64,000 nucleotides of DNA from an uncultured Candidatus Saccharibacteria bacterium (GCA_964417855.1 CAYQJB010000001.1:294709-358708); one strand, 5' to 3'. Positions 29,822-62,396 are shown, counted from the first letter of the stretch. Numbers and translations: made by a program. The notes: a model not told the origin generated them from the sequence alone.

Positions 29822-30703
29822 CTAGATCTTTATCCAACCAAGCGGAGTAACATCATTTGTATTTGCACGAGAGTCCTTAACCCATCTTTTTGGAGCTATT
29901 ACAATCTTGTCTTTTTTTGGATTAAGCCATGCACCCCACCAACTAAAGGATGAGTTTGCTATAATATTGTGATTACAATATCCCATAAGAATAAGTTCCT
30001 CATGGTCTAAAATTTCTGGTCTTGAAACACAAACAAATGGTACATCTGTCTTTAGGTTCTCCTTAACCCAGGATATATCATCTGAGAAGACAAATAAAAC
30101 CAATTGCTTTCCACACAGCTTTGCTTGTAGGGTGGATATTGCTCTTTGATAATATGTCATATCAAGTGCACCATGATATGCCGCTGCATATTTATTTGTA
30201 GTATAATCACATCTTCTTATATGAACTGACGCGCTGACCCCACCGTTATCAGCAACTTGTTTTATTCTATCTCTAAAAAGTTTTGCTTTCTCACCAAGTT
30301 TTTCTTTTAGAGTAAGGTCAGATCTTAATATGGTTTCAATATTAGAAAAATATTTTTCACTTTGCCAAAAACCCTCCACGTGTGAACCATCCTTAATGTC
30401 TAGATTTTCAGGTGTAAAGATATATCCATTATAAGGATTAGCTGTATTTTTTATCGCATTCTTTGCTTTTTCATACAATCTCTTGAAAAGACTAATATTG
30501 GAGTCATTAACATCATTTGATATTGACGCCTGCAGATTGAAGCAGTTTATTTGAAGCTCTCGTTCAGTGTCTATTTCTGACTGATTGTCATATCCAGATA
30601 CGTCAAGAATAAGAGGGGTCTCCAGTTTTAGAGAAACAGCTCTACCGTATGCATATTGAAATAGCTGGTTTCCCAAACCGCCCTTTAATTTAACCGTTAT
30701 CAT
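29822..30703 (-). CDS. alpha-1,2-fucosyltransferase, glycosyltransferase family 11
   Basis: GGLGNQLFQYA motif I and HIRRCDY (HxRRGD) motif II of GT11. Confidence 0.9.
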   Translation of the reverse strand: MITVKLKGGLGNQLFQYAYGRAVSLKLETPLILDVSGYDNQSEIDTERELQINCFNLQASISNDVNDSNISLFKRLYEKAKNAIKNTANPYNGYIFTPENLDIKDGSHVEGFWQSEKYFSNIETILRSDLTLKEKLGEKAKLFRDRIKQVADNGGVSASVHIRRCDYTTNKYAAAYHGALDMTYYQRAISTLQAKLCGKQLVLFVFSDDISWVKENLKTDVPFVCVSRPEILDHEELILMGYCNHNIIANSSFSWWGAWLNPKKDKIVIAPKRWVKDSRANTNDVTPLGWIKI

Positions 30704-30818
30704 ATAATCTTAGTGTACGATTTTTAGCACTATTTTACAAATAGACAGATTGGCTAGTCTGTGTCTTTAAGCTTTTAATCCTGAAAATGGTAAACGACTA
30801 TGATATACTTTTGCCATT

Positions 30819-33203
30819 ATGAATAAAACAAACAGTTCAATTTGCGAATTTTTGAAATACGCAATAATCGGCCTAGTTTTTCTAGTGCCCTTCGCAGATT
30901 TAGTAATATCAGAGTCTCTATATTTCCCGTTTATAACAGGTAAGGGTTTTGTAGCCAGGGCAATAGTCCTAGTTATTGCTCTTCTTTATACATCTTTGGT
31001 TATCAGAGACAGAAGCTATTTACCTAAGAAAACGCCTGTTGTTTGGGCTGCAACAACTTTTATTTTGGTATTGCTAGCTTCAACAATAAACTCTATTGAT
31101 CCATGGAAGAGTTTTTGGAGTAATCAAGAAAGAATGGAAGGTTTTGTCACACTAGCTGAAATGTTTGTTTTATTTATTGTATCAACTGGTGTTTTTTCAA
31201 ATGTGTTTGCAAGAACCTCAAAAGAGAAAGGAATATCAACAGCTTCGCCTTCAGATTTTGGTGTTTGGAAATGGTTTTTAAATACAATGCTTGCACTCAG
31301 CGTTATTATGGGTATTTATGCATTCTCAAAAATGCAGAACGCTGATGATCGTATCTTTGGAACATTGGGTAACTCTTCTTATTTGGGAGGTTACGCAATG
31401 GCGCATTTCTTCCTTGCAATGTATTTGGCGATAGACGTTATTAAAAGAATGTCATTATCTCTTAGAAAAATACCTGTTAAGGCTCGCGAGAATTTTATTT
31501 TCATTGATGTATTTCTTTCATTAATTTATGTTGCTGTAGGAATATTTAACCTTGCTGTGATGTATCAAACAGGAACAAGAGGTTCTTTTGTTGGACTAGT
31601 AGCGGGGCTATTTATTACCGCCGTAATTTGGGCTATAGCTGAGAGAAAATTGCCAATATTTAGATGGATTGGAATTGTGTCACTAGTTATAGTTGTGGCC
31701 ATTGTTGCTTTCCTTGGAGTTAATAAAAATTCTAATTTTGTTAAAACTAACAATCAACTGAATAGATTTGCTCAACTTATTACATGGGATGTAAGCAAGG
31801 TTCTGTCTGATCAAGGTCATTCAAGAACAATGCTTTGGAAAATGTCATACGAGGGTGTAAAAGAAAGACCGTTGTTAGGATGGGGACAAGATAATTTTCC
31901 TTATGTATTTGCAAAGTACTATGATCCAGCTATGTATGCACAAGAGTCATGGTTTGATAGAACTCATGATGTATTCTTTGACTGGCTAATCGCAGCTGGA
32001 TTTTTAGGCCTACTGTCATATTTGGCATTATTCTTGTCTGCGATATATACATTGTGGAAAAAAATTAACGATGATTGGAGTGTGACAGAAAGGGCGGTGA
32101 TTACCGGAATGCTTATTGCATACTTTGTTCACAATATATTTGTGTTCGACAACCTTGCAAGTTACATCTTCTTCTTCACAATTCTGGCGTTTATAAACAC
32201 TCGTGGACAAGGGAATATTGAGTCAAAGAGTATTCCTTTGGTTAAAGGTAATTCTGTTTGGATTCTTGACGTTGTTGCTGTTATTTTAACTGGTTATGTA
32301 ATATGGATTGCTGTTCTATCGCCATATAATTCAAGTGGACAGTTAATTCAATCTATGCAAGATAAGCAACAAACTCTTGTTGGTGGTAAGGCTCAGATAG
32401 TAGCAGCAGACCCTAAGGTTAGATTTGGACTAATTAAAGATGTTTTGAGTGCAAATAATCTAACTAGATCAGAAGCTCGCGAGAGATTGGTAGATATTTC
32501 TGTCGCAGCGATTACGCAGTCCGCAAAGACTGATCCAGCTTTTGCTAAAGAAGTTTATGATTATACAGTGGATCAATACGGTAAAGAATTTGCTGCTTCA
32601 AAAATGGATCCAAGACCATACTTTTTCTATTCTATATTCCAACAAAAGCTTGGTATGAATGCAGGAGCGTTAGAGACAATTAAAAAAGCAGTGGATCTTT
32701 CTCCAACTAAGCAGTCATTCTTGTATACGGAAGGTCAATTGTTAATGACGTTAAACAGAAGAGATGAAAGTACAGAAGTATTTAGAAAAGCTTACGAACT
32801 TGATAAAACAAACGTAGATGCTCTAAAGTATTATGCATATAGTCTAATAGAGAATAATAAAGCAGGGGACATAGATGCATTATTAAATGAACAAGTTAAG
32901 ATTGACCCAACATTCAAAAATGATTCTGTTTGGGCTGATCCCATGGTCCTACAGGCGCTACTTGATACAAAATCATTTGAAAAAGCAATTTCAATTGCAA
33001 AACAAAGAATCGTAAATAATCCGCAAGACATACAGGCTGTAATTTCACTATCTGCTATATATCTTAAGGCGGGTGATAGATATGCTTCTATAGAGGAACT
33101 AAAGAAAATAAAAGCACTTAAGCCTGAATATACAGCTGACGTTGATAAGTATATTAAGGATATACAAGATGGAAAGGATCCTTCCTCACAACAGACTCAA
33201 TAG
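30819..33203 (+). CDS. O-antigen ligase/polymerase (Wzy_C)-family polytopic membrane protein with C-terminal TPR repeats
   Basis: ~12 TM helices in first 500 aa; C-terminal TPR-like helical repeats. Confidence 0.75.
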   Translation: MNKTNSSICEFLKYAIIGLVFLVPFADLVISESLYFPFITGKGFVARAIVLVIALLYTSLVIRDRSYLPKKTPVVWAATTFILVLLASTINSIDPWKSFWSNQERMEGFVTLAEMFVLFIVSTGVFSNVFARTSKEKGISTASPSDFGVWKWFLNTMLALSVIMGIYAFSKMQNADDRIFGTLGNSSYLGGYAMAHFFLAMYLAIDVIKRMSLSLRKIPVKARENFIFIDVFLSLIYVAVGIFNLAVMYQTGTRGSFVGLVAGLFITAVIWAIAERKLPIFRWIGIVSLVIVVAIVAFLGVNKNSNFVKTNNQLNRFAQLITWDVSKVLSDQGHSRTMLWKMSYEGVKERPLLGWGQDNFPYVFAKYYDPAMYAQESWFDRTHDVFFDWLIAAGFLGLLSYLALFLSAIYTLWKKINDDWSVTERAVITGMLIAYFVHNIFVFDNLASYIFFFTILAFINTRGQGNIESKSIPLVKGNSVWILDVVAVILTGYVIWIAVLSPYNSSGQLIQSMQDKQQTLVGGKAQIVAADPKVRFGLIKDVLSANNLTRSEARERLVDISVAAITQSAKTDPAFAKEVYDYTVDQYGKEFAASKMDPRPYFFYSIFQQKLGMNAGALETIKKAVDLSPTKQSFLYTEGQLLMTLNRRDESTEVFRKAYELDKTNVDALKYYAYSLIENNKAGDIDALLNEQVKIDPTFKNDSVWADPMVLQALLDTKSFEKAISIAKQRIVNNPQDIQAVISLSAIYLKAGDRYASIEELKKIKALKPEYTADVDKYIKDIQDGKDPSSQQTQ

Positions 33204-33279
33204 TAGGATGGATCTAGGTGAGGTAAAGTGAGATTGTACCAGCACGTCATTTCTCAATCGCACAAATACCTAAATAAAC

Positions 33280-34317
33280 ATGACAATATTTTTTGGTCCG
33301 CACAGCTTAAGAAACAAAATTCACACACTAATGTCCAAAACCTGGCTTGGTGTGGTTTTTGAATTTACAATAATTATTTTTGCAATTATCGGACTTCTTT
33401 TTGCATCTGTTTTTGTAGGTATGCGATTTGGACTATTAAATGTTAAAGGCACAATAGATGAAAGAAATAAGTTTTTCATAGGTTCAGATACAGGTTCTAC
33501 ATCTACGTCCACGTCAATAGATTCAAATGCTCAAACAGGAGATTCAAGAGGTCTTAGTCCCGTGAGTATAAGTGATGAAAATACAAGATTAAATCTAGCT
33601 ATAATTGGAAAGATAGAATCAGAGTTTAGAAAAAATATGACTGAGGTTAGAAAATCTATTTTTCCGGATATAAGTTTTGCATGGATAAATACAAGTGAAT
33701 GGCAAACATTAACAGCGGCTCTGACAAAAGATAAAGAGGTGATTAAAAAAGCGGCTAATGACGCATCTATTAGTCCACGTCTTTTAGTTGCTGTTGTTAT
33801 CGCAGAGCAAATAAGATTTTTTACTTCTGACAGAGAAACATTTAAGAAGTTTTTTGAGCCTTTGAAAATACTAGGAACATTATCTCAGTTTTCACTAGGA
33901 GTTAGTGGTGTTAAACCAGATACTGCAAAGGCAATAGAAGATAATTTAAAAAACCCAAATTCTGAATTTTATATTTCTAAAGAATATGAAAATCTTTTGG
34001 ATTATGAGACTGTTCAGAATGATGCAGATAGGTATGCGCGCCTAACAGACAGTCACAATCATTATTATTCTTATTTATATACAGCTTTGTTTATAAAAGA
34101 GATTGAATCACAATGGTCCAGAGCAGGCTATGATATCTCTAATAGACCAGAAATCATTTCAACAATTTTTAATTTAGGTTTTTCAAAATCTATTCCTAAA
34201 AATAATCCTGAAGTTGCTGGTTCTGTAATAAACATTGGAGGAGAAAAAATTTCTTTTGGTAGATTGTCTTACGAGTTTTACTATTCAGGAGAGTTACTAG
34301 ATATTTTTGGATTCTAA
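33280..34317 (+). CDS. hypothetical membrane-anchored protein
   Basis: 345-aa ORF, single N-terminal TM, no recognised motif. Confidence 0.55.
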   Translation: MTIFFGPHSLRNKIHTLMSKTWLGVVFEFTIIIFAIIGLLFASVFVGMRFGLLNVKGTIDERNKFFIGSDTGSTSTSTSIDSNAQTGDSRGLSPVSISDENTRLNLAIIGKIESEFRKNMTEVRKSIFPDISFAWINTSEWQTLTAALTKDKEVIKKAANDASISPRLLVAVVIAEQIRFFTSDRETFKKFFEPLKILGTLSQFSLGVSGVKPDTAKAIEDNLKNPNSEFYISKEYENLLDYETVQNDADRYARLTDSHNHYYSYLYTALFIKEIESQWSRAGYDISNRPEIISTIFNLGFSKSIPKNNPEVAGSVINIGGEKISFGRLSYEFYYSGELLDIFGF

Positions 34318-34797: not shown

Positions 34798-37398
34798 GTG
34801 CTAAAATGGCCCTATATGAGTATTATATCTGATCTGTTTTCCATCTCTAAAAAGCAGGTGGCTAAGTATAGAAAAATCGTTGATATTATCAATGGATTTG
34901 AGCCTTCTATACAAGCCTTATCTGATGAGGAGTTAAAAGCAAAAACTGAGGAGTTTAGAAACCGTTTAAATGGCGGGGCTGTTTTGAATGACATTCTACC
35001 AGAGGCTTTTGCTGTTGTTAGAGAGGCTTCACACAGAACCCTTGGTCAACGCCATTATGATGTTCAGTTAATAGGAGGTCTAGTTCTTCACAATGGAAAT
35101 ATTGCAGAAATGAAAACTGGAGAAGGAAAGACTTTGATGGCAACACTAGCTGCGTACCTGAATGCAGTTTCAGGAAAAGGAGTTCATGTTGTAACTGTTA
35201 ATGATTATCTTGCAAGAAGAGATGCTGCTTGGATGGGAGAAATTTATTATGCACTTGGATTATCTACCGGTGTTGTTAATGAAGGGGAGTCTTACCTTTA
35301 TGATCCAGCTGCTGTTGTAGAAAGATTAGGCGAAGAGGCAGAAGAAAAACTAGAGAAAAAAGAAGATGAAGTCGGGGCATTTAAAATTGTCTATGAACTA
35401 CTTAGACCAACAGACAAGAAGTCTGCGTACCTAGCTGATATAACTTATGGAACAAATAATCAATTTGGGTTTGACTATCTACGTGACAACCTAGAACAAA
35501 GACCAGATGATCTAAGACAAAGAGAATTTAATTATGCGATTGTTGACGAGGTTGACTCAATTTTGATTGATGAATCAAGAACTCCCTTGATCATTGCATC
35601 TCCTTATGCTGATTCAGGAAACTTATATGTAACTTTTGCAGAACTATCAAAACATTTAGAAAAAGATGTTCACTACGTTGTTGATGAAAAATTCAAAACA
35701 ATATCTGTAACGGACGCTGGAATTGATGCTGCAGAGAAAAGCCTTGGAGTAACTAATATATATAGTGAGGGTGGTGTTAAGTATGTTCACCATATGGAAA
35801 CCGCCATTAGAGCAAAGGCATTGTTCCATAGAGATGTTGATTACATAGTAAAGGATAATGAAGTTATGATTGTTGATCCTTCAACAGGAAGACTTCAACC
35901 AGGTAGAAGATGGTCAGAGGGTTTACATCAAGCTATTGAAGCTAAGGAAGGAGTAGAAATTAAAAAAGAATCAAGAACTTATGCATCTATCACATTCCAA
36001 AACTATTTTAGAATGTATCCAAAGCTAGCTGGAATGACAGGAACTGGTCTTACAAGTCAGGAAGAGTTTTTGAAAGTCTATGGACTTGATGTTATTGAGG
36101 TTCCAACACATCGCGCAATTTCTCGTGTAGACAAAACCGATCTTATTTTTAGAACAGAAGCTGCAAAGTTTAGAGCTATTGCAAAAAAGATTAAAGAATT
36201 GAATCAAGTAGGACAGCCTGTTTTGGTTGGTACTGTTTCAATTGAAAAAAACCAATTGCTATCAGAGTTTCTAAAGAAAGAGGGAGTTCCTCATACATTA
36301 CTAAATGCAAAACCAGAATTTGCAGAGAAAGAAGGAGAAACAGTGGCTCAGGCCGGAAAGAAGGGTGCTGTTACTATTGCAACAAACATGGCTGGACGTG
36401 GGGTTGATATTAAACTAGGAGGAGCACCGGGATCAAAGGATTTATATGAAGAAATAAAATCAGTTGGGGGGTTGTATATAATCGGAACAGAAAGACATGA
36501 AGCCAGAAGAATTGATAATCAATTAAGAGGAAGAGCTGGAAGACAAGGGGATCCAGGCGAAACTCAATTCTACGTTTCTTTTGAAGATGACTTGATGAGA
36601 ATTTTTGCAAACGATTTTCTTAACAGTGCATTGGATAAATTGGGAATAGAAGAAGACCAACCGATTGAAACAAGAATTGTGTCAAAACAACTTGAAAGTG
36701 CTCAAAGAAAGATTGAGGGTATTCACTTTGATTCCAGAAAACATACTCTTCAATATGACGATGTTTTAAATCAACAAAGAAGTAAGGTATATTCAAGAAG
36801 AAAGAGAATTGTTCTATCAACTCCCGAGGAAGTAGAAACAGAGCTTGCAATTTTCTTGACAACATCAACAGACGAGGAAAAAATGGCAATAGAAAATAGA
36901 CGTGCTCAATTTAAAGGACAAGCTATTGCAAATGGGTTTGCAGAAGCAGATGCTGAGAAACCTTTCTTGTATACTGCTAGAAATATAATTCTACAAACAA
37001 TAGACCTGTTCTGGGTAGATCACCTAGAGATGATGGAGTACTTGCGTTCAAGTGTGTCGCTTAGAGCGTATGGACAAAGAGATCCTCTTGTTGAGTACAA
37101 AACTGAGGGACTAAGAATGTATAAGGATATGGAGCTTGGTGTTTCTGGAGAGATCACGAGACTGCTTCAATTGGTGAGTGGAGAAATAACAGTAAATAAT
37201 ACACCTGTAAAGACTGTTGGATTAAGAGCTGATAATACATTAGAGGATCAATCTCAATCTCAAGGAGTTTACTCTGGTGATGTATCAAATGCCGCAAACT
37301 TTGTTGCGTCTTCTGCTCATGGAGCTGATAAGGTTGGAAGAAATGATCCATGTCCATGCGGCTCTGGAAAGAAATACAAAAAATGTCACGGTCAATAG
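34798..37398 (+). CDS. secA: preprotein translocase ATPase SecA
   Basis: DEAD-motor motifs, C-terminal zinc finger CPCGSGKKYKKCHG. Confidence 0.95.
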   Translation: MLKWPYMSIISDLFSISKKQVAKYRKIVDIINGFEPSIQALSDEELKAKTEEFRNRLNGGAVLNDILPEAFAVVREASHRTLGQRHYDVQLIGGLVLHNGNIAEMKTGEGKTLMATLAAYLNAVSGKGVHVVTVNDYLARRDAAWMGEIYYALGLSTGVVNEGESYLYDPAAVVERLGEEAEEKLEKKEDEVGAFKIVYELLRPTDKKSAYLADITYGTNNQFGFDYLRDNLEQRPDDLRQREFNYAIVDEVDSILIDESRTPLIIASPYADSGNLYVTFAELSKHLEKDVHYVVDEKFKTISVTDAGIDAAEKSLGVTNIYSEGGVKYVHHMETAIRAKALFHRDVDYIVKDNEVMIVDPSTGRLQPGRRWSEGLHQAIEAKEGVEIKKESRTYASITFQNYFRMYPKLAGMTGTGLTSQEEFLKVYGLDVIEVPTHRAISRVDKTDLIFRTEAAKFRAIAKKIKELNQVGQPVLVGTVSIEKNQLLSEFLKKEGVPHTLLNAKPEFAEKEGETVAQAGKKGAVTIATNMAGRGVDIKLGGAPGSKDLYEEIKSVGGLYIIGTERHEARRIDNQLRGRAGRQGDPGETQFYVSFEDDLMRIFANDFLNSALDKLGIEEDQPIETRIVSKQLESAQRKIEGIHFDSRKHTLQYDDVLNQQRSKVYSRRKRIVLSTPEEVETELAIFLTTSTDEEKMAIENRRAQFKGQAIANGFAEADAEKPFLYTARNIILQTIDLFWVDHLEMMEYLRSSVSLRAYGQRDPLVEYKTEGLRMYKDMELGVSGEITRLLQLVSGEITVNNTPVKTVGLRADNTLEDQSQSQGVYSGDVSNAANFVASSAHGADKVGRNDPCPCGSGKKYKKCHGQ

Positions 37399-37408: not shown

Positions 37409-38359
37409 ATGTCTAAACGAGTAATAATTACAGGTGGTGCAGGCTTCATAGGTTCACATACTGTAGAAGAGTTTCTTTTACATGACTATGAGGTTGTTGT
37501 AATAGATAATTTGAGCTCAGGACTGAAAAAAAACCTAGAAAATGTTTCCGAAAAAATTAAATTTGTCGAAGGGGATATTCGCGACAAATCGTTGTTAACT
37601 GAAAATATAAGAAAAGGGGATATTGTGGTACATTTGGCTGGTTTTATATCTGTACCAGATAGCATTCTAAGACCAGAGGAGTCACATGATATAAATGTAA
37701 ATGGTACAAATACATTGTATGTTGTAGCAAAAGATATGGGTGCAAAGAGAGTTGTTACAGCTTCATCTGCAGCAATATATGGCGAGCCGGAAATGATACC
37801 TCAAAATGAAAATAATAGTTTGAAATCTTTCTCTCCGTATGCGTTACATAAAACTATTATAGAAAAATATGCGGAATTATACTCTAGAATTTTTTGCGTA
37901 GAGCACGTAGCAATGAGATTTTTTAATGTATATGGTCCAAGGCAGGCATCATCAGGCGGTTACGCTGCTGTAATTCCAATATTCATGGAAAAAATTAAAA
38001 ATGACATACCTGCTGAAATAAATGGCGATGGAAGTGCTGTGCGTGATTTTATATATGTTAAGGATGTAGCGAGGGTTTTACGTCTTGCTGCTGAATTTGA
38101 AATGACTAAGGATGTTAGTAATTCTGCTGTTCCAGCTGTGCTTTTTAATTATTTCAATATAGCAACAGGTAAACCATCAACTATAAATGAGCTTTGGTCT
38201 AATCTTTGTAAGATTATGGACAAGGATATACAGCCAATTTATAAACCATTTAGGATAGGGGATGTACATACTAGTTTAGCGGATGTTTCAAAAGCAAAAG
38301 AGATGCTTAAGTTTGAGGCAGAGACATCTTTTTTTGATGGTTTGAAAAGTATGTTATAG
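37409..38359 (+). CDS. NAD-dependent sugar epimerase/dehydratase (UDP-hexose 4-epimerase-like, SDR family)
   Basis: MSKRVIITGGAGFIGSH Rossmann motif; ORF track start 37277 overlaps secA, ATG 37409 preferred. Confidence 0.85.
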   Translation: MSKRVIITGGAGFIGSHTVEEFLLHDYEVVVIDNLSSGLKKNLENVSEKIKFVEGDIRDKSLLTENIRKGDIVVHLAGFISVPDSILRPEESHDINVNGTNTLYVVAKDMGAKRVVTASSAAIYGEPEMIPQNENNSLKSFSPYALHKTIIEKYAELYSRIFCVEHVAMRFFNVYGPRQASSGGYAAVIPIFMEKIKNDIPAEINGDGSAVRDFIYVKDVARVLRLAAEFEMTKDVSNSAVPAVLFNYFNIATGKPSTINELWSNLCKIMDKDIQPIYKPFRIGDVHTSLADVSKAKEMLKFEAETSFFDGLKSML

Positions 38360-46883: not shown

Positions 46884-49800
46884 TTGTACTGTGTTATAAT
46901 TCACAGCATGAAAAAGTTTTTTTTATTGTTTCTTACATTAATTATATTAAGTATATCGGCCCACATTTCTGTTTTTGCTCAAACAAAGCTTGACCCAAAA
47001 ATATATGATAAATACGGATTCAGACTTGATCAAAAACTACATAAACCAGCAACCTCTACACCGTCAATTTTATCAATAGCATCTTCGACTTTACTAAAAG
47101 CAACTTCTACCTTAGTAAAGCCTGACGTGCCACCAGTTGATTTGTCGGCTTTTAAACAAGGAGAAGCTGCTTCATGTTTTGATTACTATACCTTTGGAAG
47201 TATAGCTGTAAACCTTTCAACAGATGCATCTACATATAGTCCTGGAGATGTGGTTATCTTACGTGGTGAAATTAAGAATAATAATAAATATCCAATTACT
47301 AATTTGACTGTAAGAGCTAGATTAGTAAAAGATATTCCAAATCCAGATTATCTAAGATCGGAAATTATCACGTTACAAGATTTTAATATCGTAGAAAATA
47401 TAACACTAGATGCTGGTAAAAGTTTTGCTGTTAATTACTCACATTTATTGCCGTTGAACTCACCAAAAGGCGAGTATAAGTTGCTATTTTATGCATATAA
47501 TAATGACCGATTTGAGCAATCAGGTTTATCGTTTTCAAATATTTCTACAGCACAAAGCTTGAGATTTAAGGTTGTCGGCAATAATCCTCAGCAGGTATAT
47601 TTGGACCAAACAAAGATTACTGTCAACGACATGGATTATAATGTGATAGGACCAATACCAGAAATAGCCAAAAGTAATTCGGCAAACATTTCAATACCAC
47701 TAGTGAATCCAACAGGTAAGGATGAAAAAATGACAATTACATACTCTTTGTATAAATGGGATGACTTGCTTGATAAAAACAAAGTAGACTCAAAAGTGGA
47801 AAATATTACCGTCTCAGCAAACAGCAAGGTTAATTTGTTGTACAAGGTGGTCAAGACGGATATGCCTATTTATTACTTAAATATCAAATCAGATAAAGCA
47901 AATGCAAATAATGATTTAAACAAAAAAAGTAAAACCGTTTTTGATATTCAAACAGAGTCGAACGTACGATTTGCGGTTGCAGGCTATGACTATCCGAGAA
48001 TAAATTCATTTGGCGTTAACACATATCCAATAGTTGCTGGACAGGATATATCATTGTTTACCTGTTATAATAATGCAGCAAAAAAAGATACACAAAGTAA
48101 TGTGAATATCAGCACAATTTTATATGATGACAAGAATAATATTATCTCTAAAACTCAGTACGATGGAAAGATTAATGGAAGTATCAGTGCAATCTTTAAT
48201 AGGTTTAAAAGTAAGAGAGATATTGTAAATTTCAAGGCTGAAGTAGTGATTACTGATAGTGCTGGAAATATTATTGATAAAATAGAAAATAATTACAATT
48301 GTAAGGACATTAATCCCAAGATATGTCCAGCTGAAATTAATAACAATTCAGCTTGGATTATTTTGTTTTTTCTAATTTTGATTGTATTCATGATTATAAT
48401 TTTTTATGTAAAAATTAAAAGTAATAAAAGAAAGTCGGTAAATTTAATATCGATGATTTTTACTATAATCTTCACAATTATTCCAAGCTTGATGTTTGCG
48501 CATACATCAGAGGCTGCGACCCGAAGGGCATCGTTGGATTTTTACATGGATAGTTCAGCAAATGGTGCCCCAGATTCTATTGGATTGGTAGAAAAAGAAT
48601 TTAATTTTAATAAATCTGGAATCAATCTAAGTGATGTAGACTTGAATGTTCTAAATGTTGGTGAATCTATCGATGCATCCTCGCCATCAGCTGTTGGATC
48701 GTGGTATTTTAAAGGTTACCCATTGGACCATACTAATATGGATGGCAGTAAATATATGTCGAGTGATACCTATGATTTTTCAACAACTTATGTCGATTTT
48801 TCAATGGGGACGCCTATTGAAGTAGGTGATACAAATATTAGTTCAGATAATCCTAGTGTAGTATCTTGTATATCAAACAAATGTACGGCGGTAGGACCTG
48901 GTACAGCAAATATTAATGTATCCTTTGCTGATAAAGAGAATGAAACTTCAAATGATATTAAAACATGTGATGTGTTCGATTTTACTTACAAGCGCTGGAA
49001 GGGTGATTATTTGACTCCAGGACGATCCTATGGATATGGCTTAGCACCTAACTGTGTACCTGGTAGGCTTGCCAATGCAGGAATGGATACAAGTTTTGTC
49101 CGTAGTCATTTTATACCGTATTACGATAGTATGGACGAAGCGCTATTTCCTACTTATGCATATTCTTATTTTGATAATATTCGTTTTTTCCCAGGTCCTA
49201 GTAAGGGCTTTGGTATTGTTAATACACTGCTTCATATATATGTAGATCATACGGATTTTGCAGACCCAGATTCGGGTTCATCAGATTGGAGTATTGGTGC
49301 TGCTCAGGCATTTTCTTTTGATCCAATTAAATATGCAATAACTGTTCCATCAACTATAAACGCAACACAGACATCTGCCTGTACTGGCGTAACAAATATC
49401 TCTCAGTCTTCTGCAACTGTGAATTGGTCCTACGTAGATCCTGAGGGCGACCCTCAAACAAATTTTCAGGTACAAATATCAGTAGATTCCACCTTTGCTG
49501 ATTCAAGTATTGTTAATTCAGTTGCAGCATCAGCAAACACAGACGCGTCATCTGTCAGGTCAGTATCAATACAAGGTCTTACTTCTAATACTACATACTT
49601 TTGCAGAGTAAGGACACTTAATACTGCAAATGGATGGAGTGAGTATAATAATTGTTCCAATAGTTTTATTACAACTGGAAATAACATTTCAGCTCCAACC
49701 ATCTCAGGCCCACACGATGTCTCCCTTGGGGTGCCAGCAACATACACAGCTTCATCCAGCTTGGCTGCTGTTACAAAAAAAGAAAATGATTCATTCTTTG

Positions 49801-50678
49801 CATCAGTATTTTTTGCTCTTAAAAAAGTTTTTGCACAAACATCCACAGAAACTAAGTTAGTATATCAATTTGATTGGAATAATGATGGTATAATAGACTA
49901 TTCTAGTGATCCTGTGTTACCTGGTGTTGAGGTACAAGCCTCAAATACTTGGAATACAAAAGGAGACTTCATCTTCAAAGCAAGAGCTACCGAACCAGTA
50001 AGTGGAGTTTCTTCAGATTGGGTGAGCTTTAATATAAATGTCAGCGATAAACCTAAAGTACAAGCATTATTCTATTGTGTTTCCCCAAACCTATCTTGGG
50101 GTGCTGTTCCAAATGCTATAAGTTATGATTTTGAAGTGAAAAATAAAACAGATTTAACCTCTGTACACAAAACTATAACAGGTCTAACTGTAGATATTTC
50201 TCAGTATCTAAATAATACAAATATCTCGTTTGGTGTTAGAGCAATATATTCTGGAAATCTTAAGGGAGATCAAACCTGGGTAAATAATATTACGCCAACT
50301 TGTCCTAAGTTGGGTGATAGTTTGAACATAAAGAGCGGTATGATATTTGGATCAAATCCGCCATGGGCAAATGAAACAACTAAAAAATGTGCATATTTTG
50401 GACAAATAGATCCTACTATTGTTATGTCAGATGAAAAAACCTACACAGGAATTGTTGTAAAAGCATGCTCAATTGATGGAATAAGTGTGTCTTTGTCTAA
50501 TACAGTAAATGGGGGAAAGGGGTTTGAGAATATACCAAAAAATGTTGGGAATCATATATTGTCCTGTAATTTAGATTATGATAATGGAATAGATGCTAAT
50601 GGTGCTGTTATAAGATCTAATGCAACGACTGTATTAAGTGCTAAGTGTTCAAACTTGGCAAACACTGTGGAGAAATAA
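46884..50678 (+). CDS. giant surface protein: signal peptide, ~460-aa extracellular region, TM hairpin (possible internal signal peptide), Fn3-like domain
   Basis: 1264-aa ORF; two hydrophobic segments at ~490-545 with AHTSEA signal-peptidase-like site; Fn3-like segment SATVNWSYVDPEGDPQTNFQVQIS...TYFCRVR. Confidence 0.75.
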   Translation: MYCVIIHSMKKFFLLFLTLIILSISAHISVFAQTKLDPKIYDKYGFRLDQKLHKPATSTPSILSIASSTLLKATSTLVKPDVPPVDLSAFKQGEAASCFDYYTFGSIAVNLSTDASTYSPGDVVILRGEIKNNNKYPITNLTVRARLVKDIPNPDYLRSEIITLQDFNIVENITLDAGKSFAVNYSHLLPLNSPKGEYKLLFYAYNNDRFEQSGLSFSNISTAQSLRFKVVGNNPQQVYLDQTKITVNDMDYNVIGPIPEIAKSNSANISIPLVNPTGKDEKMTITYSLYKWDDLLDKNKVDSKVENITVSANSKVNLLYKVVKTDMPIYYLNIKSDKANANNDLNKKSKTVFDIQTESNVRFAVAGYDYPRINSFGVNTYPIVAGQDISLFTCYNNAAKKDTQSNVNISTILYDDKNNIISKTQYDGKINGSISAIFNRFKSKRDIVNFKAEVVITDSAGNIIDKIENNYNCKDINPKICPAEINNNSAWIILFFLILIVFMIIIFYVKIKSNKRKSVNLISMIFTIIFTIIPSLMFAHTSEAATRRASLDFYMDSSANGAPDSIGLVEKEFNFNKSGINLSDVDLNVLNVGESIDASSPSAVGSWYFKGYPLDHTNMDGSKYMSSDTYDFSTTYVDFSMGTPIEVGDTNISSDNPSVVSCISNKCTAVGPGTANINVSFADKENETSNDIKTCDVFDFTYKRWKGDYLTPGRSYGYGLAPNCVPGRLANAGMDTSFVRSHFIPYYDSMDEALFPTYAYSYFDNIRFFPGPSKGFGIVNTLLHIYVDHTDFADPDSGSSDWSIGAAQAFSFDPIKYAITVPSTINATQTSACTGVTNISQSSATVNWSYVDPEGDPQTNFQVQISVDSTFADSSIVNSVAASANTDASSVRSVSIQGLTSNTTYFCRVRTLNTANGWSEYNNCSNSFITTGNNISAPTISGPHDVSLGVPATYTASSSLAAVTKKENDSFFASVFFALKKVFAQTSTETKLVYQFDWNNDGIIDYSSDPVLPGVEVQASNTWNTKGDFIFKARATEPVSGVSSDWVSFNINVSDKPKVQALFYCVSPNLSWGAVPNAISYDFEVKNKTDLTSVHKTITGLTVDISQYLNNTNISFGVRAIYSGNLKGDQTWVNNITPTCPKLGDSLNIKSGMIFGSNPPWANETTKKCAYFGQIDPTIVMSDEKTYTGIVVKACSIDGISVSLSNTVNGGKGFENIPKNVGNHILSCNLDYDNGIDANGAVIRSNATTVLSAKCSNLANTVEK

Positions 50679-50713
50679 AACTGGTCTGCTATATTTTGAT
50701 GTATAATGTATGT

Positions 50714-51574
50714 ATGTCATTATCTAATGATCAAATCTCTTTAATAAAAACAAAAGCCAAAGAAATTAGAATCGGAGTTATAGAGATGTTGGCTGAAGCA
50801 AAATCCGGTCATTCTGCTGGCGCCCTTGGTATGGCTGATATATTTTCTACACTATATTTTAGCTTGCTTAAAAAAGAAGACCGTCTTGTTTTATCAAATG
50901 GCCATATTTGCCCCGTCCTATATTCGTCAATGGCCTCAGCTGGAATAATTGATAAAGCAGAATTGAAAACCTTAAGAAAATTTGGAAGTATTTTACAAGG
51001 TCATCCTCATAGGGAATTTCTACCATCACTGCAAACAAGCTCAGGGCCACTTGGCTCAGGACTTTCACAGGCTGTTGGGATGGCGATCGCTGATAAAATT
51101 GATGATAGTAATTATGAAAAACTACCTAAGAGATTTGTCTATTGCATGATGTCCGATGGGGAACTAGACGAAGGACAAAGCTGGGAGGCGGTAATGCTTG
51201 GGGCAAAGGAAAAACTCGTAAATCTAATTGCAATTGTCGATAGGAATAATATTCAAATCGGAGGAAGTACAGAAGAAGTAATGCCATTATCGCCCACAGG
51301 CGCATCTCTATTTGATAAATGGAAATCTTTTAACTGGTATGTTCAAGAGATTGACGGGCATGACATACAAGCAATAAATGACGCTGTAATAAAGGCACAA
51401 ACAAACCTTGTTAGACCGTCTGTGATAATTGCACACACTATTCCTGGAAAGGGAGTGAGTTTTATGGAGAATAGATTTGAGTGGCATGGAATTCCGCCCG
51501 GAATTCAAAATGTAGATGGAGCTCCTAAAAAAGAAAAACAAATTGAAGTTGCATTGCAAGAACTTTCTATATAG
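50714..51574 (+). CDS. transketolase, N-terminal (ThDP-binding) subunit
   Basis: GHSAGALGMADIF and GPLGSGLSQAVGMA ThDP motifs; ORF track start 50645, ATG 50714 preferred. Confidence 0.9.
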   Translation: MSLSNDQISLIKTKAKEIRIGVIEMLAEAKSGHSAGALGMADIFSTLYFSLLKKEDRLVLSNGHICPVLYSSMASAGIIDKAELKTLRKFGSILQGHPHREFLPSLQTSSGPLGSGLSQAVGMAIADKIDDSNYEKLPKRFVYCMMSDGELDEGQSWEAVMLGAKEKLVNLIAIVDRNNIQIGGSTEEVMPLSPTGASLFDKWKSFNWYVQEIDGHDIQAINDAVIKAQTNLVRPSVIIAHTIPGKGVSFMENRFEWHGIPPGIQNVDGAPKKEKQIEVALQELSI

Positions 51575-52143: not shown

Positions 52144-53631
52144 ATGTTTAAATTTTACACTAAAAATAGTACTCAAAAAATTAGTAAAAACAGAGCATTT
52201 ACGCTTATCGAGCTTCTTGTTGTGATGGCAATAATTTCATTGCTCTCTTCTCTTGTTCTGAATAGCTTAGCAAGCGCTAGGATGAAAGCTAATGATACAA
52301 AAATTACTGAGGACTTAAGACAATTTAAGATTGCTGCAGAGCTTTACTATAATGATAATCATACATACCCAAGTGGGTATACTCCTGGAGCATCCAAAGG
52401 ACAGGATCTAGCTTATGTCGATAAAAATGAGAGTTGGTCAAAAAAATTATCATTCTTCGTAAAGACAGCTGAGGCATCTGGTCCAGTTCATACTTCACAG
52501 TTATGTTTGAATTTTGATGCTATGGCACAGTCCATGGTCGCTGGAAAATATCTTTCAGCAGTTCCAGTTCATCCATATGACGACGATTCTACGGGAAAAG
52601 GGGTTTGTTATAAGGCTATAAAGAATGATAAGACTTTTGTTTCTTACGCACCTTTGACTACAAGAATTGCTGTCACAAACGGTAGTATAAATAAAAATAC
52701 GGGTTTTATTTTGGGTGATACGAGTATTAGTGCAGTTAACGATGTTAATGTAGCTATAAAATCTACTAAAAAAGGTAATAAAATAGACACGGAAAGACCT
52801 GCTTTTGTTGCTGCTGATGGAGTAAATCCTGTAGCTGATCTTACTATGTCCCAAGATGCAGTAGACGGTTTTACAACAGGGGCACCAGCTGTAACCGGGG
52901 GTGTAGTGGGCAGTATATTTGATATTTTTACCCCCTCCTCACCAACACCAACACCAACTTGTGCTGACGGAGAAGCCATTAATACATTGGGTGTTTGTCA
53001 GGCCTTGTATACTGGTTTTCTTAGAATGAATTGTGTTGCCCCTGCGAATCAAGATCCATTTAGCTCTGGGTGTATTGGGGAAAATCCTACTGCAATAACT
53101 GCAACAAACACAATAACAGGTGGAACTCTTATAATGAATCTGTTTACAGGTATTCGTATAAATTCGGCAACATGTCCAATTGGTACGCGTCAGGACCTAT
53201 ATAGTGATTCATGCGTAGCTAGCATCACTATAGGAGCTATAGGAGGAGGTATAGGAGGTATAGGAGGTATTTGTGGTGGTGGTATGCAGCTATCTAATGG
53301 TGTTTGTAAAATAGGACATTCAGGTTGTGACGCTCAAGGAAATGGACCTTGTGGACCAACGACATTTTCCTATTCCTGTCCAGCGGGTATGACTTTTGAT
53401 ATAAATGGACTAGAGAATACAGCTAATGGGACTTGCTCTACCATTCCAGTTGGGGATTGTGGTATGGGCTCTACATTGCAGTCAAATGGTGTGTGTGTGT
53501 CCAACGGAAGTGCATGTCTTCCTCCTGGTGTCGCTGGTTCATGTCCAGGCGTTGGATCTGTCACTTGTCCCTCAGGTAAGACGTTTCTAATTAATGGTCT
53601 AGAATATACAGTTAATGGTACCTGTCAGTAG
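52144..53631 (+). CDS. large type IV pilin-like protein (prepilin N-terminal methylation motif) with Cys-rich C-terminal repeats
   Basis: FTLIELLVVMAIISLL class III signal (Ala at -1, Glu+5); repeated CP[AS]G[MK]TF.INGLE.T.NGTC modules. Confidence 0.8.
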   Translation: MFKFYTKNSTQKISKNRAFTLIELLVVMAIISLLSSLVLNSLASARMKANDTKITEDLRQFKIAAELYYNDNHTYPSGYTPGASKGQDLAYVDKNESWSKKLSFFVKTAEASGPVHTSQLCLNFDAMAQSMVAGKYLSAVPVHPYDDDSTGKGVCYKAIKNDKTFVSYAPLTTRIAVTNGSINKNTGFILGDTSISAVNDVNVAIKSTKKGNKIDTERPAFVAADGVNPVADLTMSQDAVDGFTTGAPAVTGGVVGSIFDIFTPSSPTPTPTCADGEAINTLGVCQALYTGFLRMNCVAPANQDPFSSGCIGENPTAITATNTITGGTLIMNLFTGIRINSATCPIGTRQDLYSDSCVASITIGAIGGGIGGIGGICGGGMQLSNGVCKIGHSGCDAQGNGPCGPTTFSYSCPAGMTFDINGLENTANGTCSTIPVGDCGMGSTLQSNGVCVSNGSACLPPGVAGSCPGVGSVTCPSGKTFLINGLEYTVNGTCQ

Positions 53632-53697: not shown

Positions 53698-54768
53698 ATG
53701 CTAAACTCCAACATAAAACTAAATCAAAAACTCTTTGCTGCGGATGTAGAAAAAACTGCTACCCGCAAAGGTTTTGGTGAAGGCCTTTTGCTTGCTGGAA
53801 AGTATGATGAAAAAATCGTAGCACTTTCTGCAGATCTAACAGAGTCAACTCAAGTTCATTTATTCAAAAACGCCTTTCCTAACAGATTTATCGAAGTAGG
53901 TGTTGCTGAACAAAATTTAGCGAGTGTCGCATCAGGACTGGCCGCCTCCGGAAAAATCCCTGTTATTGCATCCTATGCAATATTCAATCCTGGAAGAAAC
54001 TGGGAACAGATTAGAACCACAATTTGTTACAACAACAGAAAGGTTGTTGTTGCAGGTTCACACGCTGGATTATCAGCTGGGAAGGATGGTGGTTCGCATC
54101 AAGCGCTTGAGGACATTGCGCTTGCACGAGTTATACCAAACATGACTGTAATATCTCCATGTGACGCCGTAGAGGCTAGAAAGGCAATAATAGCAGCCAT
54201 TTCACCATCGCAAATAACTCCAGTATATTTAAGATTAGCTAGAGAAAATACACCAATAATAACAACTGATGAAACTCCTTTTGTAATAGGGAAAGCACAA
54301 ATAGTTTGGGGTGATCATGTTGATTGCGATGCACCTGCAGGTATTGCACCTTCAGCTTCTGGTTCAGGGACTTCCACGGTTCCACCAACGGGATCCGCAC
54401 TGTGCGATATCGGAATAATAGCAACAGGCCCTATTTTATACAATGCAATTTTGGCTGCTAAACAGTTAAGTAATTTAAAAATACGTGTCAAAGTTTTGAA
54501 TCTGGCAACAATTAAACCAATTGATGAGGAGGCAATAGTGTCGCTTGCTAGGCAGTCTAATGGGAAAATTCTAACAGTTGAAGAGCATCAAATTAGTGGG
54601 GGAATGGGAAGCGCTGTAGCTGAGGTTCTTGCAAGAAAATATCCATCTAAGATGGCTTTTATTGGAGTGAACGATAGATTTGGCCAGTCCGGCACAACTG
54701 AAGAATTATACAAAGAATACGGTTTGACCGTTGATGATATTGTAGAGAAGGCAAAGGGGTTGGTCTAA
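53698..54768 (+). CDS. transketolase, C-terminal (pyrimidine-binding + C-terminal domain) subunit, with Ser/Gly/Pro-rich insert
   Basis: FGEGLLLAGKYDEKIVALSADLTEST and GSHAGLSAGKDGGSHQ motifs. Confidence 0.9.
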   Translation: MLNSNIKLNQKLFAADVEKTATRKGFGEGLLLAGKYDEKIVALSADLTESTQVHLFKNAFPNRFIEVGVAEQNLASVASGLAASGKIPVIASYAIFNPGRNWEQIRTTICYNNRKVVVAGSHAGLSAGKDGGSHQALEDIALARVIPNMTVISPCDAVEARKAIIAAISPSQITPVYLRLARENTPIITTDETPFVIGKAQIVWGDHVDCDAPAGIAPSASGSGTSTVPPTGSALCDIGIIATGPILYNAILAAKQLSNLKIRVKVLNLATIKPIDEEAIVSLARQSNGKILTVEEHQISGGMGSAVAEVLARKYPSKMAFIGVNDRFGQSGTTEELYKEYGLTVDDIVEKAKGLV

Positions 54769-54845: not shown

Positions 54846-54849
54846 TGTA

Positions 54850-57679: not shown

Positions 57680-57692
57680 AATCGATTAATTA

Positions 57693-58076: not shown

Positions 58077-58186
58077 TATATCATGTAGTGGTCTGCCTCG
58101 TCTGCCTTATCCACATATTAGTATGCTGCGGTGGCGAATTAAGCCTAAAACTTTGGGTTTTCTTTGGTGTCAGTGCTATAAATTTG

Positions 58187-59138: not shown

Positions 59139-59260
59139 TTTGCAAGTTGAATATCATCGGAATTTAAGTTGTATCTAATACGCAAATGAAGGCTTTGTTA
59201 ATTGATTCAGGTGTTAATAGACTGGAGGGAGAAACTACATTATTGTAAACAAAATGTAAA

Positions 59261-59283
59261 ACACCTCCGCAAGGAGGTGTTTT
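59261..59283. terminator. bidirectional intrinsic terminator
   Basis: ACACCTCC-gcaa-GGAGGTGT with T-runs on both strands (TTT on +, TTTACATTTT on -). Confidence 0.55.
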
Positions 59284-59326
59284 AAAATCGAACAATATTA
59301 GCTGTGCCTTTATCTCATTGATACGC

Positions 59327-59536
59327 CTACGCTGCTGTACACATCTTGCAATCTTTCTTGTGTGTGAAAATCAGAACAAGGGCTGAGAGACCAACTAGGA
59401 TATAAACAATCTTTGAAGCAATTGTCATATCACCAAGAAGTATTGTCACTAGATTGAAGTTAAAAGCTCCAACCAAGAGCCAGTTCAAACCTCCTACGAC
59501 AAGAAGAATGAATGAAACCATATGTAATCCTTTCAT
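59327..59536 (-). CDS. DUF378-family small membrane protein
   Basis: 69 aa, GGLNWLLVG motif. Confidence 0.65.
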   Translation of the reverse strand: MKGLHMVSFILLVVGGLNWLLVGAFNFNLVTILLGDMTIASKIVYILVGLSALVLIFTHKKDCKMCTAA

Positions 59537-59575
59537 GTTTTTATATTAATTAGTAATATGTTAATTATATCACTT

Positions 59576-60814: not shown

Positions 60815-60902
60815 TGTGATACTAATTTTGATATATTCTAATAATGTGAGTATACACCATGTGAACTAAACAAAGAAGAATATCATATGATACAATGTTG
60901 AT

Positions 60903-61598
60903 ATGTTAAAACTAAGTATAATTATGCCTGTATATAATGGTGAAAAGTACCTCAAAGAAGCTATTCAAAGTGTTTTAGACCAAACGTTCAAAGATTTTGA
61001 ATTTATCATCATAGATGATGGATCCACTGATGAGTCTGTAAAAATAGCTGAAAGCTTTCATGATCAAAGAATAAGTTTGATTAGGTTAAGTCATGGAGGA
61101 ATCGTAAAAGCTTTGAATGCTGGGATGAAGGCTGCACAAGGTGTTTACATTATCCGTGCAGATGCAGACGACATCTCGCTTCCAGAAAGATTCAAAATAC
61201 TTCTTGATTATATGGAAAATAATAAGGATGTATCTATTTGTGGGTCATGGGCAGATTCAATAAATAAGAAGGGGGAAGTGGTGGGTGGTATGGAATACCC
61301 ACCTGTTGAGAATAAAGGTATTAAAAAATACCTGCTACTTCATAATCCATTTATTCACCCATCAGTTATATTTAGAAAAAAAACTATAAGTGAGCTTGGG
61401 GGATACAAAAACTTTAAACATAATGAAGATTATGAGTTGTGGACACGAGTTCTACAGAAAAATATTGGGCATAATATTCCCCAAAAATTAATTAGATATA
61501 GGGTACATCCATGGCAGGTTACAAAAAACAACCTTTGGAAATTAAGGTCTGTGGGTGTACTCGTAAGATTGCTAGCGTTGAAGCGTTACTTTTTTTGA
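60903..61598 (+). CDS. glycosyltransferase family 2
   Basis: LSIIMPVYNGEKYL...DDGSTDES, DAD motif. Confidence 0.85.
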   Translation: MLKLSIIMPVYNGEKYLKEAIQSVLDQTFKDFEFIIIDDGSTDESVKIAESFHDQRISLIRLSHGGIVKALNAGMKAAQGVYIIRADADDISLPERFKILLDYMENNKDVSICGSWADSINKKGEVVGGMEYPPVENKGIKKYLLLHNPFIHPSVIFRKKTISELGGYKNFKHNEDYELWTRVLQKNIGHNIPQKLIRYRVHPWQVTKNNLWKLRSVGVLVRLLALKRYFF

Positions 61599-61601
61599 TT
61601 T

Positions 61602-62396
61602 CTATGTCCTATTCGATTTAATTACTTTTTTAATAAATGTCTTCAGAGAGTTTAATATAAGTTTTAATTCAGTTTTATTTCTAAATTTAGAATGTCCCCC
61701 TAGTGTTTTTTTATCTATTAACAATATTTTTGCTTCGAATGGTAAATTATTCTCACTGTAATATAGATAGGCCGGAGTTAGGATCTTCACAATATCTAAG
61801 TGATTATTAAGGTACCAGTTCCAGTGTGATTCATCGTGCCATTTTGCAATTATTTTGTTTTCTTTGTCCCTTTTTATATTAATATCTAGAATTTGTATTG
61901 TTTCAAGAAAAGGTTTTGCTAAGCCTCCATTTATTCCACCAGCAAAATAATATACACCCTGACTTTTATCTATATAAGCAGTAGATTTTGGGTTGCCTTC
62001 GTAAGTAAATTTACCTCTAGGTTTGTCGTAATAGCCTGGATGTAAGCATCCTACAAGTTTTTGGCCTTCAGCTGGAAGAATTTCTTCGGCGGATATTTTT
62101 TTGACAAAAATTAGGTTAGCGTTGAAAAAAAAGATGTAATCCATTTTCTCGAGCTCCTGATTGACCCTTAGGAATATACTATATCTCATGAGAGTATTAT
62201 CGGGCCACCCAAGATTGTTCTGGTATATTCTATGAATATTCTTGTTTGTTTTTTCAAAATCTATCTCAGGCGAATCTGTAAAAACAAAATAGTGTTTTTC
62301 TGCCTCTGTTACAAAATTTTCCTCGCAACTCAAATAAAAGTCTTTCCAAAAGATTGTATATTTACCTGTACAGACGTGGAGAATTGCAATTTTCAT
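61602..62396 (-). CDS. glycosyltransferase family 6 (bacterial NxN-type, ABO blood-group transferase homolog)
   Basis: HYFVFTD, LHPGYY...FTYE...AYI, YYFAGG, KWHDESHWNWYL, ILTPAYLY align with mammalian GTA/GTB catalytic core; FFFNANL (NxN instead of DxD) as in Bacteroides BoGT6a. Confidence 0.85.
   Translation of the reverse strand: MKIAILHVCTGKYTIFWKDFYLSCEENFVTEAEKHYFVFTDSPEIDFEKTNKNIHRIYQNNLGWPDNTLMRYSIFLRVNQELEKMDYIFFFNANLIFVKKISAEEILPAEGQKLVGCLHPGYYDKPRGKFTYEGNPKSTAYIDKSQGVYYFAGGINGGLAKPFLETIQILDINIKRDKENKIIAKWHDESHWNWYLNNHLDIVKILTPAYLYYSENNLPFEAKILLIDKKTLGGHSKFRNKTELKLILNSLKTFIKKVIKSNRT

Follow-up and report, generated by a model that had tools for sequence, protein, structure and literature searches.

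Here we describe two glycosyltransferase genes in a 64,000-nucleotide stretch of DNA from an uncultured Candidatus Saccharibacteria bacterium (GCA_964417855.1, CAYQJB010000001.1:294709-358708; hereafter the window)—one encoding a family 6 glycosyltransferase (GT6), the family of the human ABO transferases, and the other a family 11 alpha-1,2-fucosyltransferase (GT11). From comparative sequence evidence, we propose that the two belong to a single surface-glycan pathway with a blood-group-A-like end, conserved in the Candidate Phyla Radiation (CPR, or Patescibacteria), whose genes lie apart here; we put the probability of this reading at about 0.6. Enzymes of both kinds are already known and annotated, and their split arrangement is the sole unusual feature. 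The glycan genes lie within positions 29,822-62,396 and onward (Table 1). The GT6 operon runs off the window, so the flippase and several further pathway genes sit past its end; this part was read on contig JBAXXP010000001.1 of GCA_037127815.1 (365 kb; locus L001). The sequence read covers the window and the 8 kb past its end, about 72 kb in total, and families were called with Pfam and NCBIfam profiles against their curated cutoffs.

An initial annotation of the window had recognized both enzymes from their motifs, and profile searches bear out the GT6 assignment. The protein scores 113 bits with Pfam PF03414 (Glyco_transf_6; E 1.3e-32; cutoff 25) and 295 bits with NCBIfam NF041524, "family 6 glucosyltransferase" (cutoff 250), the latter match spanning the whole profile (positions 1-226 of 226), and GenBank already names it "MAG: family 6 glucosyltransferase [bacterium]", where MAG denotes a metagenome-assembled genome. 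All of the motifs quoted for the two proteins are found at exact positions: in GT6, HYFVFTD (35-41), NAN (92-94), LHPGYY (118-123), FTYE (130-133), YYFAGG (149-154), WHDESHWNWYL (186-196), and LTPAYLY (206-212); in GT11, GGLGNQLFQYA (8-18) and HIRRCD (161-166). The closest solved relative of GT6 is BoGT6a from Bacteroides ovatus (PDB 4ayj; E 3.6e-73, residues 1-241 against 1-245), a characterised metal-independent enzyme that transfers N-acetylgalactosamine (GalNAc) onto 2'-fucosyllactose (PMC3516806, PMC3961637) and has been solved repeatedly (PDB 4ayj/4ayl and 4cj8-4cjc). N92-A93-N94 of the window enzyme aligns with N95-A96-N97 of BoGT6a and with the DVD position of the human A transferase (GTA); the claimed membership in the NXN, metal-independent class thus holds, with NAN at the DXD position as in BoGT6a.

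Conservation with BoGT6a extends across the active site. All 17 of the BoGT6a residues that contact the uridine diphosphate (UDP)-GalNAc donor, as listed in the BoGT6a literature (PMC3961637), are identical in the window GT6: T10, Y13, W64, N67, T68, R71, N92, A93, N94, G154, W186, H187, D188, E189, K229, H235, and R239. Two of these residues, E189 and K229, are invariant in all 120 members of a family alignment of GT6 homologs and correspond to BoGT6a Glu192, the catalytic residue, and Lys231, a C-terminal residue that steadies the UDP leaving group (PMC3961637). On the acceptor side, five of the seven BoGT6a contacts are identical (H119, T131, Y150, W186, and E189)—the set common to GTA and the human B transferase (GTB)—and Phe125 is replaced by Tyr122. 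Because the donor contacts and specificity residues of BoGT6a and most of its acceptor contacts are kept, we predict a metal-independent alpha-1,3-GalNAc transferase that acts on fucosyl-alpha1,2-galactose (Fuc-alpha1,2-Gal); the donor assignment is less certain than the acceptor assignment.

The GT11 assignment likewise stands. The protein clears the 23.9-bit cutoff of Pfam PF01531 (Glyco_transf_11) with 104 bits (E 8.8e-30) and carries an HxRRxD-type motif, which is conserved and functionally critical in alpha-1,2/1,6-fucosyltransferases, the first Arg being critical for activity (PMC4202792). No NCBIfam model matched the protein and a sequence search returned no solved relative; GenBank already holds an identical protein as "MAG: alpha-1,2-fucosyltransferase [bacterium]". 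We predict that it makes the Fuc-alpha1,2-Gal (H-type) acceptor.

That GT6 acts on the product of GT11, as the initial annotation had suggested, is supported by the neighbourhoods of GT6 genes in other genomes. We took the 80 GT6 loci closest to that of the window, out of 475 GT6-bearing species genomes, and searched them for GT11 genes, using a profile made from homologs of the window GT11. A GT11 gene lies within 10 kb of GT6 in 68 of the 80 loci (64 strong matches and 4 weaker ones in Bacteroides); the gap between the two has a median of 50 bp and a maximum of 3,969 bp, and the genes share a strand in 55 of the 68. The remaining 12 loci are all truncated, with less than 4.4 kb left beside GT6 on one side or both, and cyanophage GT6 genes are also annotated adjoining GT11 genes (phage records H9 and H10). 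Since GT6 is essentially always found beside GT11 elsewhere, there is strong comparative evidence that GT6 enzymes need the GT11 product, and a functional GT6-GT11 pairing is well supported from gene neighbourhood.

In CPR relatives, the genes that the window holds at two places form one contiguous module: Wzy_C-TPR, Wzx, GT4, FkbM, a GT-B enzyme, GT2, GT6, GT11, and GT2. This contiguity supports the earlier grouping of the Wzy_C-TPR, epimerase, GT4, GT2, and FkbM genes as one system; each of these genes was also confirmed by a Pfam match. Examples of the arrangement include Wzy_C-TPR / Wzx-GT4-FkbM-FkbM-FkbM-GT6 / GT2 / 306-aa protein-GT11 in a Nomurabacteria genome (L026), Wzy_C-TPR / Wzx-GT4-...-306-aa protein-GT6-GT11 / GT2 in L005 and L006, and GT6 / GT2-GT11-(Gmd)-epimerase-Wzy_C-TPR in L009, L011, L013, and L015. 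The 306-aa protein, encoded past the window end in our lineage, has a GT-B fold and belongs to an unannotated family. A Wzy_C-TPR homolog lies within 10 kb of GT6 in 10 of 20 CPR-labelled loci, 2 of 5 unlabelled loci, and none of the 55 loci from other phyla; for the 306-aa protein near GT6 the corresponding counts are 6 of 20, 2 of 5, and 0 of 55. A GT2b-like gene is present at 17 of 20 CPR loci and 37 of 55 others, and an epimerase of the window's type stands beside GT11/Wzy_C-TPR in L009, L011, L013, and L020.

Because the module is contiguous in CPR relatives, gene order identifies the window's GT11 and Wzy_C-TPR genes (at about 30 kb) and its GT6 operon (from about 60 kb) as the putative two halves of one module. 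Three genomes with an orthologous GT11 (L085, L087, and L089) share the window's order of TrwB-like ATPase, GT11, Wzy_C-TPR, an uncharacterised gene, SecA, AI-2E, MYG1, and Obg, so the split would be old and stable in this lineage. A single contiguous GT6/GT11 cluster across the 32.6-kb span is ruled out by the housekeeping genes that fill the 31 kb in between. Encoded between GT11 and GT6 are SecA, an AI-2E transporter, MYG1, Obg, an NYN protein, GatB, GAPDH, RpiB, and Rpe, as well as a 1264-aa fn3 protein, split transketolase halves, pilin-like proteins, a GNAT protein, and a MazF toxin.

Several observations weigh against a single pathway. At 30,898 bp apart the two genes are not adjacent, a separation that is unique among the loci examined. 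Identity between the window GT11 and its GT6-linked counterparts in relatives is just 33-43%—GT6, GT4a, GT2b, and the 306-aa protein reach 50-66%, while Wzx and Wzy_C-TPR are lower too—and the clade of the window GT11 is isolated in a neighbour-joining tree; the low identity and the isolation mean that the window GT11 may not be the orthologous partner. The nearest outsiders to this clade are the GT6-linked GT11s of L007 and L008, by a small margin, and the tree is therefore uninformative as proof of shared ancestry with GT6-linked GT11s. The GT11 ortholog group comprises 25 clusters at 66-79% identity, with the next matches at 46% or less, and these orthologs of at least 66% identity outnumber the GT6 relatives of at least 64% identity (7 clusters), so GT11 may also work without GT6. 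In humans, the H antigen occurs without A or B. The seventh BoGT6a acceptor contact, Trp218, is Asn216 in the window enzyme, and Trp occupies that position in just 60 of 120 family members. Finally, neither GDP-mannose dehydratase (Gmd) or GDP-fucose synthase (Fcl; GDP, guanosine diphosphate) nor an initiating phosphoglycosyl transferase was found in the roughly 72 kb read.

Most of these points would also fit two enzymes that serve different glycans, the GT6 acceptor being non-fucosylated, otherwise different, or supplied by a second GT11. The separation, the divergence and abundance of the GT11 group, and the Trp218 replacement all favour such an arrangement, as does the closest GT6 relative with any context (L091), which shows no adjoining GT11 on its short contig. 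The conserved gene order around GT11 and Wzy_C-TPR in L085, L087, and L089, genomes with an orthologous GT11, also speaks for it. However, GT11 lies within 4 kb in every GT6 locus with adequate flanks, and a GT6 without a partner would be unprecedented in the sample; the H-type acceptor residues common to GTA and GTB are all kept; and Wzy_C-TPR, here beside GT11, belongs to the GT6 cluster in relatives. The 72 kb contain exactly one GT6 and one GT11, with no GT11 inside the GT6 operon, and gene position is irrelevant for enzymes that work on one lipid-linked intermediate. We consider separate glycans unlikely.

A second alternative keeps GT6 and GT11 in the same pathway and changes the donor: GT6 would transfer galactose (Gal), producing a B-like rather than an A-like end. 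Human A and B transferases differ at positions 235/266/268, with Gly/Leu/Gly in the former and Ser/Met/Ala in the latter (PMC4202792). Very few residues set the donor choice in GT6, the window enzyme has Ala and not Leu at the GTA-266 position, and a bacterial GT6 that transfers Gal is known, WbnI of Escherichia coli O86 (PMC4202792); the epimerase encoded nearby is a possible source of UDP-Gal as well as of UDP-GalNAc. On the other hand, the donor-specificity positions of the window GT6 (Gly121/Ala152/Gly154) are the same as in the GalNAc-specific BoGT6a, and the GalNAc-contacting residues R71, N92, G154, and E189 are all identical. Approximately 20-27 of the 120 close homologs have Gln or Met plus Ala, in place of Ala plus Gly, at two of the donor-specificity positions; these may be a Gal-transferring (B-type) subgroup, and the window GT6 lies outside it. 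The residues thus point to GalNAc, and we give Gal transfer a rather small chance.

The initial annotation went too far in stating that the window encodes the parts needed: the enzyme families are real and glycan-export parts are present (Wzy_C-TPR within the window and Wzx just past it), but no genes for GDP-fucose synthesis or for initiation were found in the window or the next 8 kb, and the flippase falls outside the window. Elsewhere, Gmd lies beside GT6/GT11 in 11 of the 80 other loci, including a true Gmd in L009 and L014. The window epimerase was considered as a Gmd or Fcl and ruled out (41-46 bits; the best NCBIfam models are TviC and GalE, both below cutoff); a role as the source of UDP-GalNAc or UDP-Gal is plausible. 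An upstream GTG start of the epimerase overlaps the end of SecA, and the ATG at 37409 is likely the true start. In the window the gene sits between SecA and the AI-2E transporter, a slot without an epimerase in L085, L087, and L089, which have nothing there or genes for DoxX, cytochrome b5, or major facilitator superfamily (MFS) proteins.

The pathway that we propose for GT6 and GT11 would assemble a lipid-linked glycan on the cytoplasmic side of the membrane. The GT4, GT2, and GT-B enzymes would build a short backbone ending in Gal; GT11 would add alpha-1,2-linked fucose from GDP-fucose to give an H-type end; and GT6 would add an alpha-1,3-linked sugar to the same Gal without a metal ion, most probably GalNAc, resulting in a blood-group-A-like trisaccharide. 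The FkbM-type methyltransferases probably methylate the glycan, Wzx would flip it across the membrane, and Wzy_C-TPR would then polymerise it or transfer it to its final carrier. The enzyme families in this scheme are assigned directly; we infer the order of steps, the sugars, the target of methylation, and the final carrier. Wzy_C-TPR is a predicted polymerase or ligase/O-oligosaccharyltransferase of the glycan; its match to solved structures in a sequence search is limited to the TPR part, approximately 250 C-terminal residues.

To our knowledge, no lipopolysaccharide has been described in the CPR. Pilin-like genes lie near the glycan genes, and Saccharibacteria pilin glycosylation has so far just been predicted (PMC11623550). 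A more specific proposal is a lineage-specific module, common to many CPR, that makes a methylated oligosaccharide with an A-like cap, which Wzy_C-TPR would attach, as an O-oligosaccharyltransferase, to surface proteins such as the type IV pilins encoded close by, with a role in recognizing the host bacterium or evading phages rather than in mimicry of vertebrates. In this full form we hold it to be doubtful, with a low probability; if it were true, host-associated members, e.g., oral Saccharibacteria, could incidentally present an A-like antigen to animals.

Known systems provide several points of comparison. Like BoGT6a, the window GT6 belongs to the same length class, lacks an N-terminal stem, has NAN for DXD, and can be aligned over residues 1-241; the catalytic Glu is kept, and Lys229 and Arg239 correspond to BoGT6a Lys231 and Arg243. 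The two differ in host (CPR-type rather than gut Bacteroides), in the window GT11 partner, which is not adjacent, and in gene context, the window GT6 being clustered with a GT-B enzyme specific to the CPR and three methyltransferases of the FkbM family. The E. coli O86 set, which produces a blood-group-B mimic, consists of WbnH (GT4), WbnJ (GT2), WbwK/WbnK (GT11), WbnI (GT6), and Wzx/Wzy; each of these four glycosyltransferase families is represented in the window and L001, as are a flippase (Wzx) and a protein of the Wzy_C type, and the best solved relative of the window GT4 is WbnH itself (4xyw; E 1.1e-19). In O86, as proposed here, GT6 uses the H-type acceptor that GT11 produces (PMC4202792). 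The O86 genes form one O-antigen cluster in a diderm, and their product ends on lipid A-core, whereas those of the window occupy two loci separated by 31 kb; the window also differs in its predicted donor (GalNAc, not Gal), its extra methyltransferases, and the TPR domain on its Wzy_C protein.

Human GTA and GTB, which work with FUT1/FUT2, share the GT6 core with the window enzyme (E ~4e-26, window residues 9-213), and the His, Thr, Tyr, Trp, and Glu that bind the H antigen are kept, along with GTA-like Gly at 235 and 268. The window GT6 has no DXD, hence no Mn2+ requirement is expected; it has no anchor or stem, position 266 is Ala, and it is predicted to act on a cytoplasmic lipid-linked oligosaccharide, whereas GTA and GTB act on Golgi glycoproteins and glycolipids. 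Cyanophage GT6s (e.g., from Prochlorococcus phage P-SSM2) are of the same family and some adjoin GT11, but they are approximately 35% identical to the window GT6 and fall in the metal-dependent group (PMC3516806). Finally, the Wzy_C-TPR protein resembles WaaL ligases, Wzy polymerases, and PglL/PilO O-oligosaccharyltransferases in being a multi-pass membrane protein with a Wzy_C domain, and differs from them in its C-terminal TPR region of approximately 250 residues.

The initial annotation regarded GT6 as unexpected in a CPR-type genome and saw in it a sign of horizontal acquisition or host-glycan mimicry. None of these views is supported. At least 20 CPR-labelled species genomes occur among the best 80 of the 475 GT6-bearing species, and the best ~20 genome matches (53-61% identity) come from MAGs of the Patescibacteria group, Magasanikbacteria, Nomurabacteria, Paceibacterota, Parcubacteria, Minisyncoccia, and Saccharibacteria; the closest GT6 homologs of all, at 64-68% identity, lie on short contigs. 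A neighbour-joining tree without bootstrap, with human GTA as its root, places the window GT6 in a clade of 25 tips that includes 17 labelled as CPR, 4 without a label, and 2 labelled Proteobacteria (both short MAG contigs), while GT6s of Bacteroidota, Neisseria, Firmicutes, and phage lie outside. The phylogeny against Bacteroides, Proteobacteria, and phage homologs that the annotation had called for therefore gave no foreign placement, and a clade this nearly purely CPR argues against recent import. The guanine-plus-cytosine (GC) content is slightly low—0.318-0.328 in the glycan genes (0.328 in the GT6 cluster) against 0.354 in the window outside its ribosomal RNA (rRNA) genes—and this is an ordinary dip for glycan loci; GT11/Wzy_C-TPR is syntenic in relatives.

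A recent transfer from Bacteroides, Proteobacteria, or phage into a lineage that mimics vertebrate blood-group glycans would find some encouragement in the patchy distribution of GT6 among bacteria, for which horizontal transfer has been proposed (PMC4202792), in the lower GC of the cluster, and in GT6-bearing Saccharibacteria and Neisseria MAGs, some of which could be host-associated. The Bacteroides homolog BoGT6a and the phage homologs are, however, much more distant than the CPR relatives (a phage origin is ruled out at 43% identity or less), the surrounding module, including its CPR-specific components, is common to several CPR lineages, and the same genome has been recovered in several independent assemblies. 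The relatives' records name bog, lake, and stream samples, and because these are environmental, vertebrate mimicry is unlikely; recent foreign origin combined with mimicry is thus very improbable. An ancient transfer of GT6 into the CPR is possible.

Table 1. Glycan-related genes of the window and of the adjoining part of locus L001.
Feature	Coordinates	Strand	Evidence
GT11 alpha-1,2-fucosyltransferase, 293 aa	29822..30703	(-)	Pfam PF01531
Wzy_C membrane protein with C-terminal TPR repeats, 794 aa	30819..33203	(+)	Pfam Wzy_C E 8.7e-20, TPR families
GalE/TviC-like NAD-dependent UDP-sugar 4-epimerase	37409..38359 (open reading frame opening at 37277)	(+)	Pfam Epimerase E 1.1e-55
GT4 glycosyltransferase (GT-B, retaining), 412 aa	59576..60814	(-)	Pfam Glycos_transf_1/Glyco_transf_4
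GT2 glycosyltransferase, 231 aa	60903..61598	(+)	Pfam Glycos_transf_2 E 4e-38
GT6, NXN-type, 264 aa	61602..62396	(-)	Pfam PF03414, NCBIfam NF041524
GT2 glycosyltransferase, 260 aa	62393..63175	(-)	Pfam Glycos_transf_2 E 1.9e-41
FkbM-family methyltransferase, reading frame cut by window end (299 aa in L001)	63172..64000	(-)	Pfam Methyltransf_21
Past the window, upstream of FkbM: GT-B glycosyltransferase, two FkbM, GT4, Wzx flippase	L001 3314-9225		NCBIfam fkbM_fam and Wzx-like matches

On L001 the genes follow the order Wzx, GT4, FkbM, FkbM/RfbT-like, 306-aa protein, FkbM, GT2, GT6, with stop/start overlaps all along the operon; a convergent GT2 and then a GT4 come after GT6. In the window, the stop of the 260-aa GT2 overlaps the start of GT6 by 4 bp, placing both in the same operon, and the 231-aa GT2 is convergent with GT6, the stops being 3 bp apart. 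GT11 and Wzy_C-TPR are divergent with 115 bp between them. Directly downstream of Wzy_C-TPR, positions 33280-34317 encode a 345-aa protein without a family match, which may belong with Wzy_C-TPR; an unannotated gene for 290-301 aa occupies this slot in L085 and L087. Positions 27665-29755 encode a TrwB/TraG/HerA-like ATPase of 696 aa with a Ser/Arg/Asp-rich low-complexity C-terminal tail of approximately 250 residues; it adjoins GT11 in L087 and L089.

Other features of the window include a 1264-aa protein (46884-50678) with an fn3 domain, a weak GtrII-type glucosyltransferase match (E 1.6e-4, below cutoff), and no NCBIfam match, which may act as a membrane glycosyltransferase or, as a surface protein, bear on the fate of the glycan. 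Transketolase is encoded as separate N- and C-terminal genes (region 50645-51574, 52144-53631, 53698-54768), and a 495-aa protein bearing the N-methylation motif of type IV pilins is encoded between the halves. Housekeeping genes make up the left half of the window (L10, L7/L12, FtsW, SecDF, pyruvate kinase, and rRNA genes). The rRNA genes (8321-12288 and 18361-19840) are unlinked, with 23S-5S followed by a 6-kb gap containing FtsW, SecD, SecF, and others, and then 16S-tRNA. The 23S gene is 3,753 nt long, compared with 2,925 nt for the model; of the excess, 272 nt belong to a group I intron (11132-11403), a further insertion of approximately 550 nt is unexplained, and two small minus-strand reading frames inside the gene (9693-10046 and 11623-11940) have no Pfam match. 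An EPSP-synthase/MurA-type enolpyruvyl transferase with an N-terminal HTH of the Cro/C1 type is encoded at 20360-21925, a fusion also present in L085 and L089, and positions 296-3904 encode a 1202-aa protein whose residues 529-699 form an LCAT-like alpha/beta-hydrolase (lipase/acyltransferase) domain, with no family match in the remainder.

For this window alone, our analysis is an incremental annotation, as the GenBank names of both proteins are already correct. Its wider meaning is that CPR/Patescibacteria commonly carry an NXN-type GT6 together with a GT11 partner, embedded in a conserved module some of whose parts are specific to the CPR. The CPR/Patescibacteria are ultra-small, mostly environmental episymbionts, whereas discussion of bacterial blood-group-like glycans usually centres on gut species and pathogens; in the literature we found no paper that joins CPR/Patescibacteria with GT6 or blood-group terms, and Saccharibacteria glycosylation has been termed unexplored (PMC11623550). 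If the glycan is made, it would offer a testable handle on CPR surface chemistry—by way of anti-A lectins or antibodies and recombinant enzymes—and the CPR GT6s would be a possible source of small metal-independent A-type transferases.

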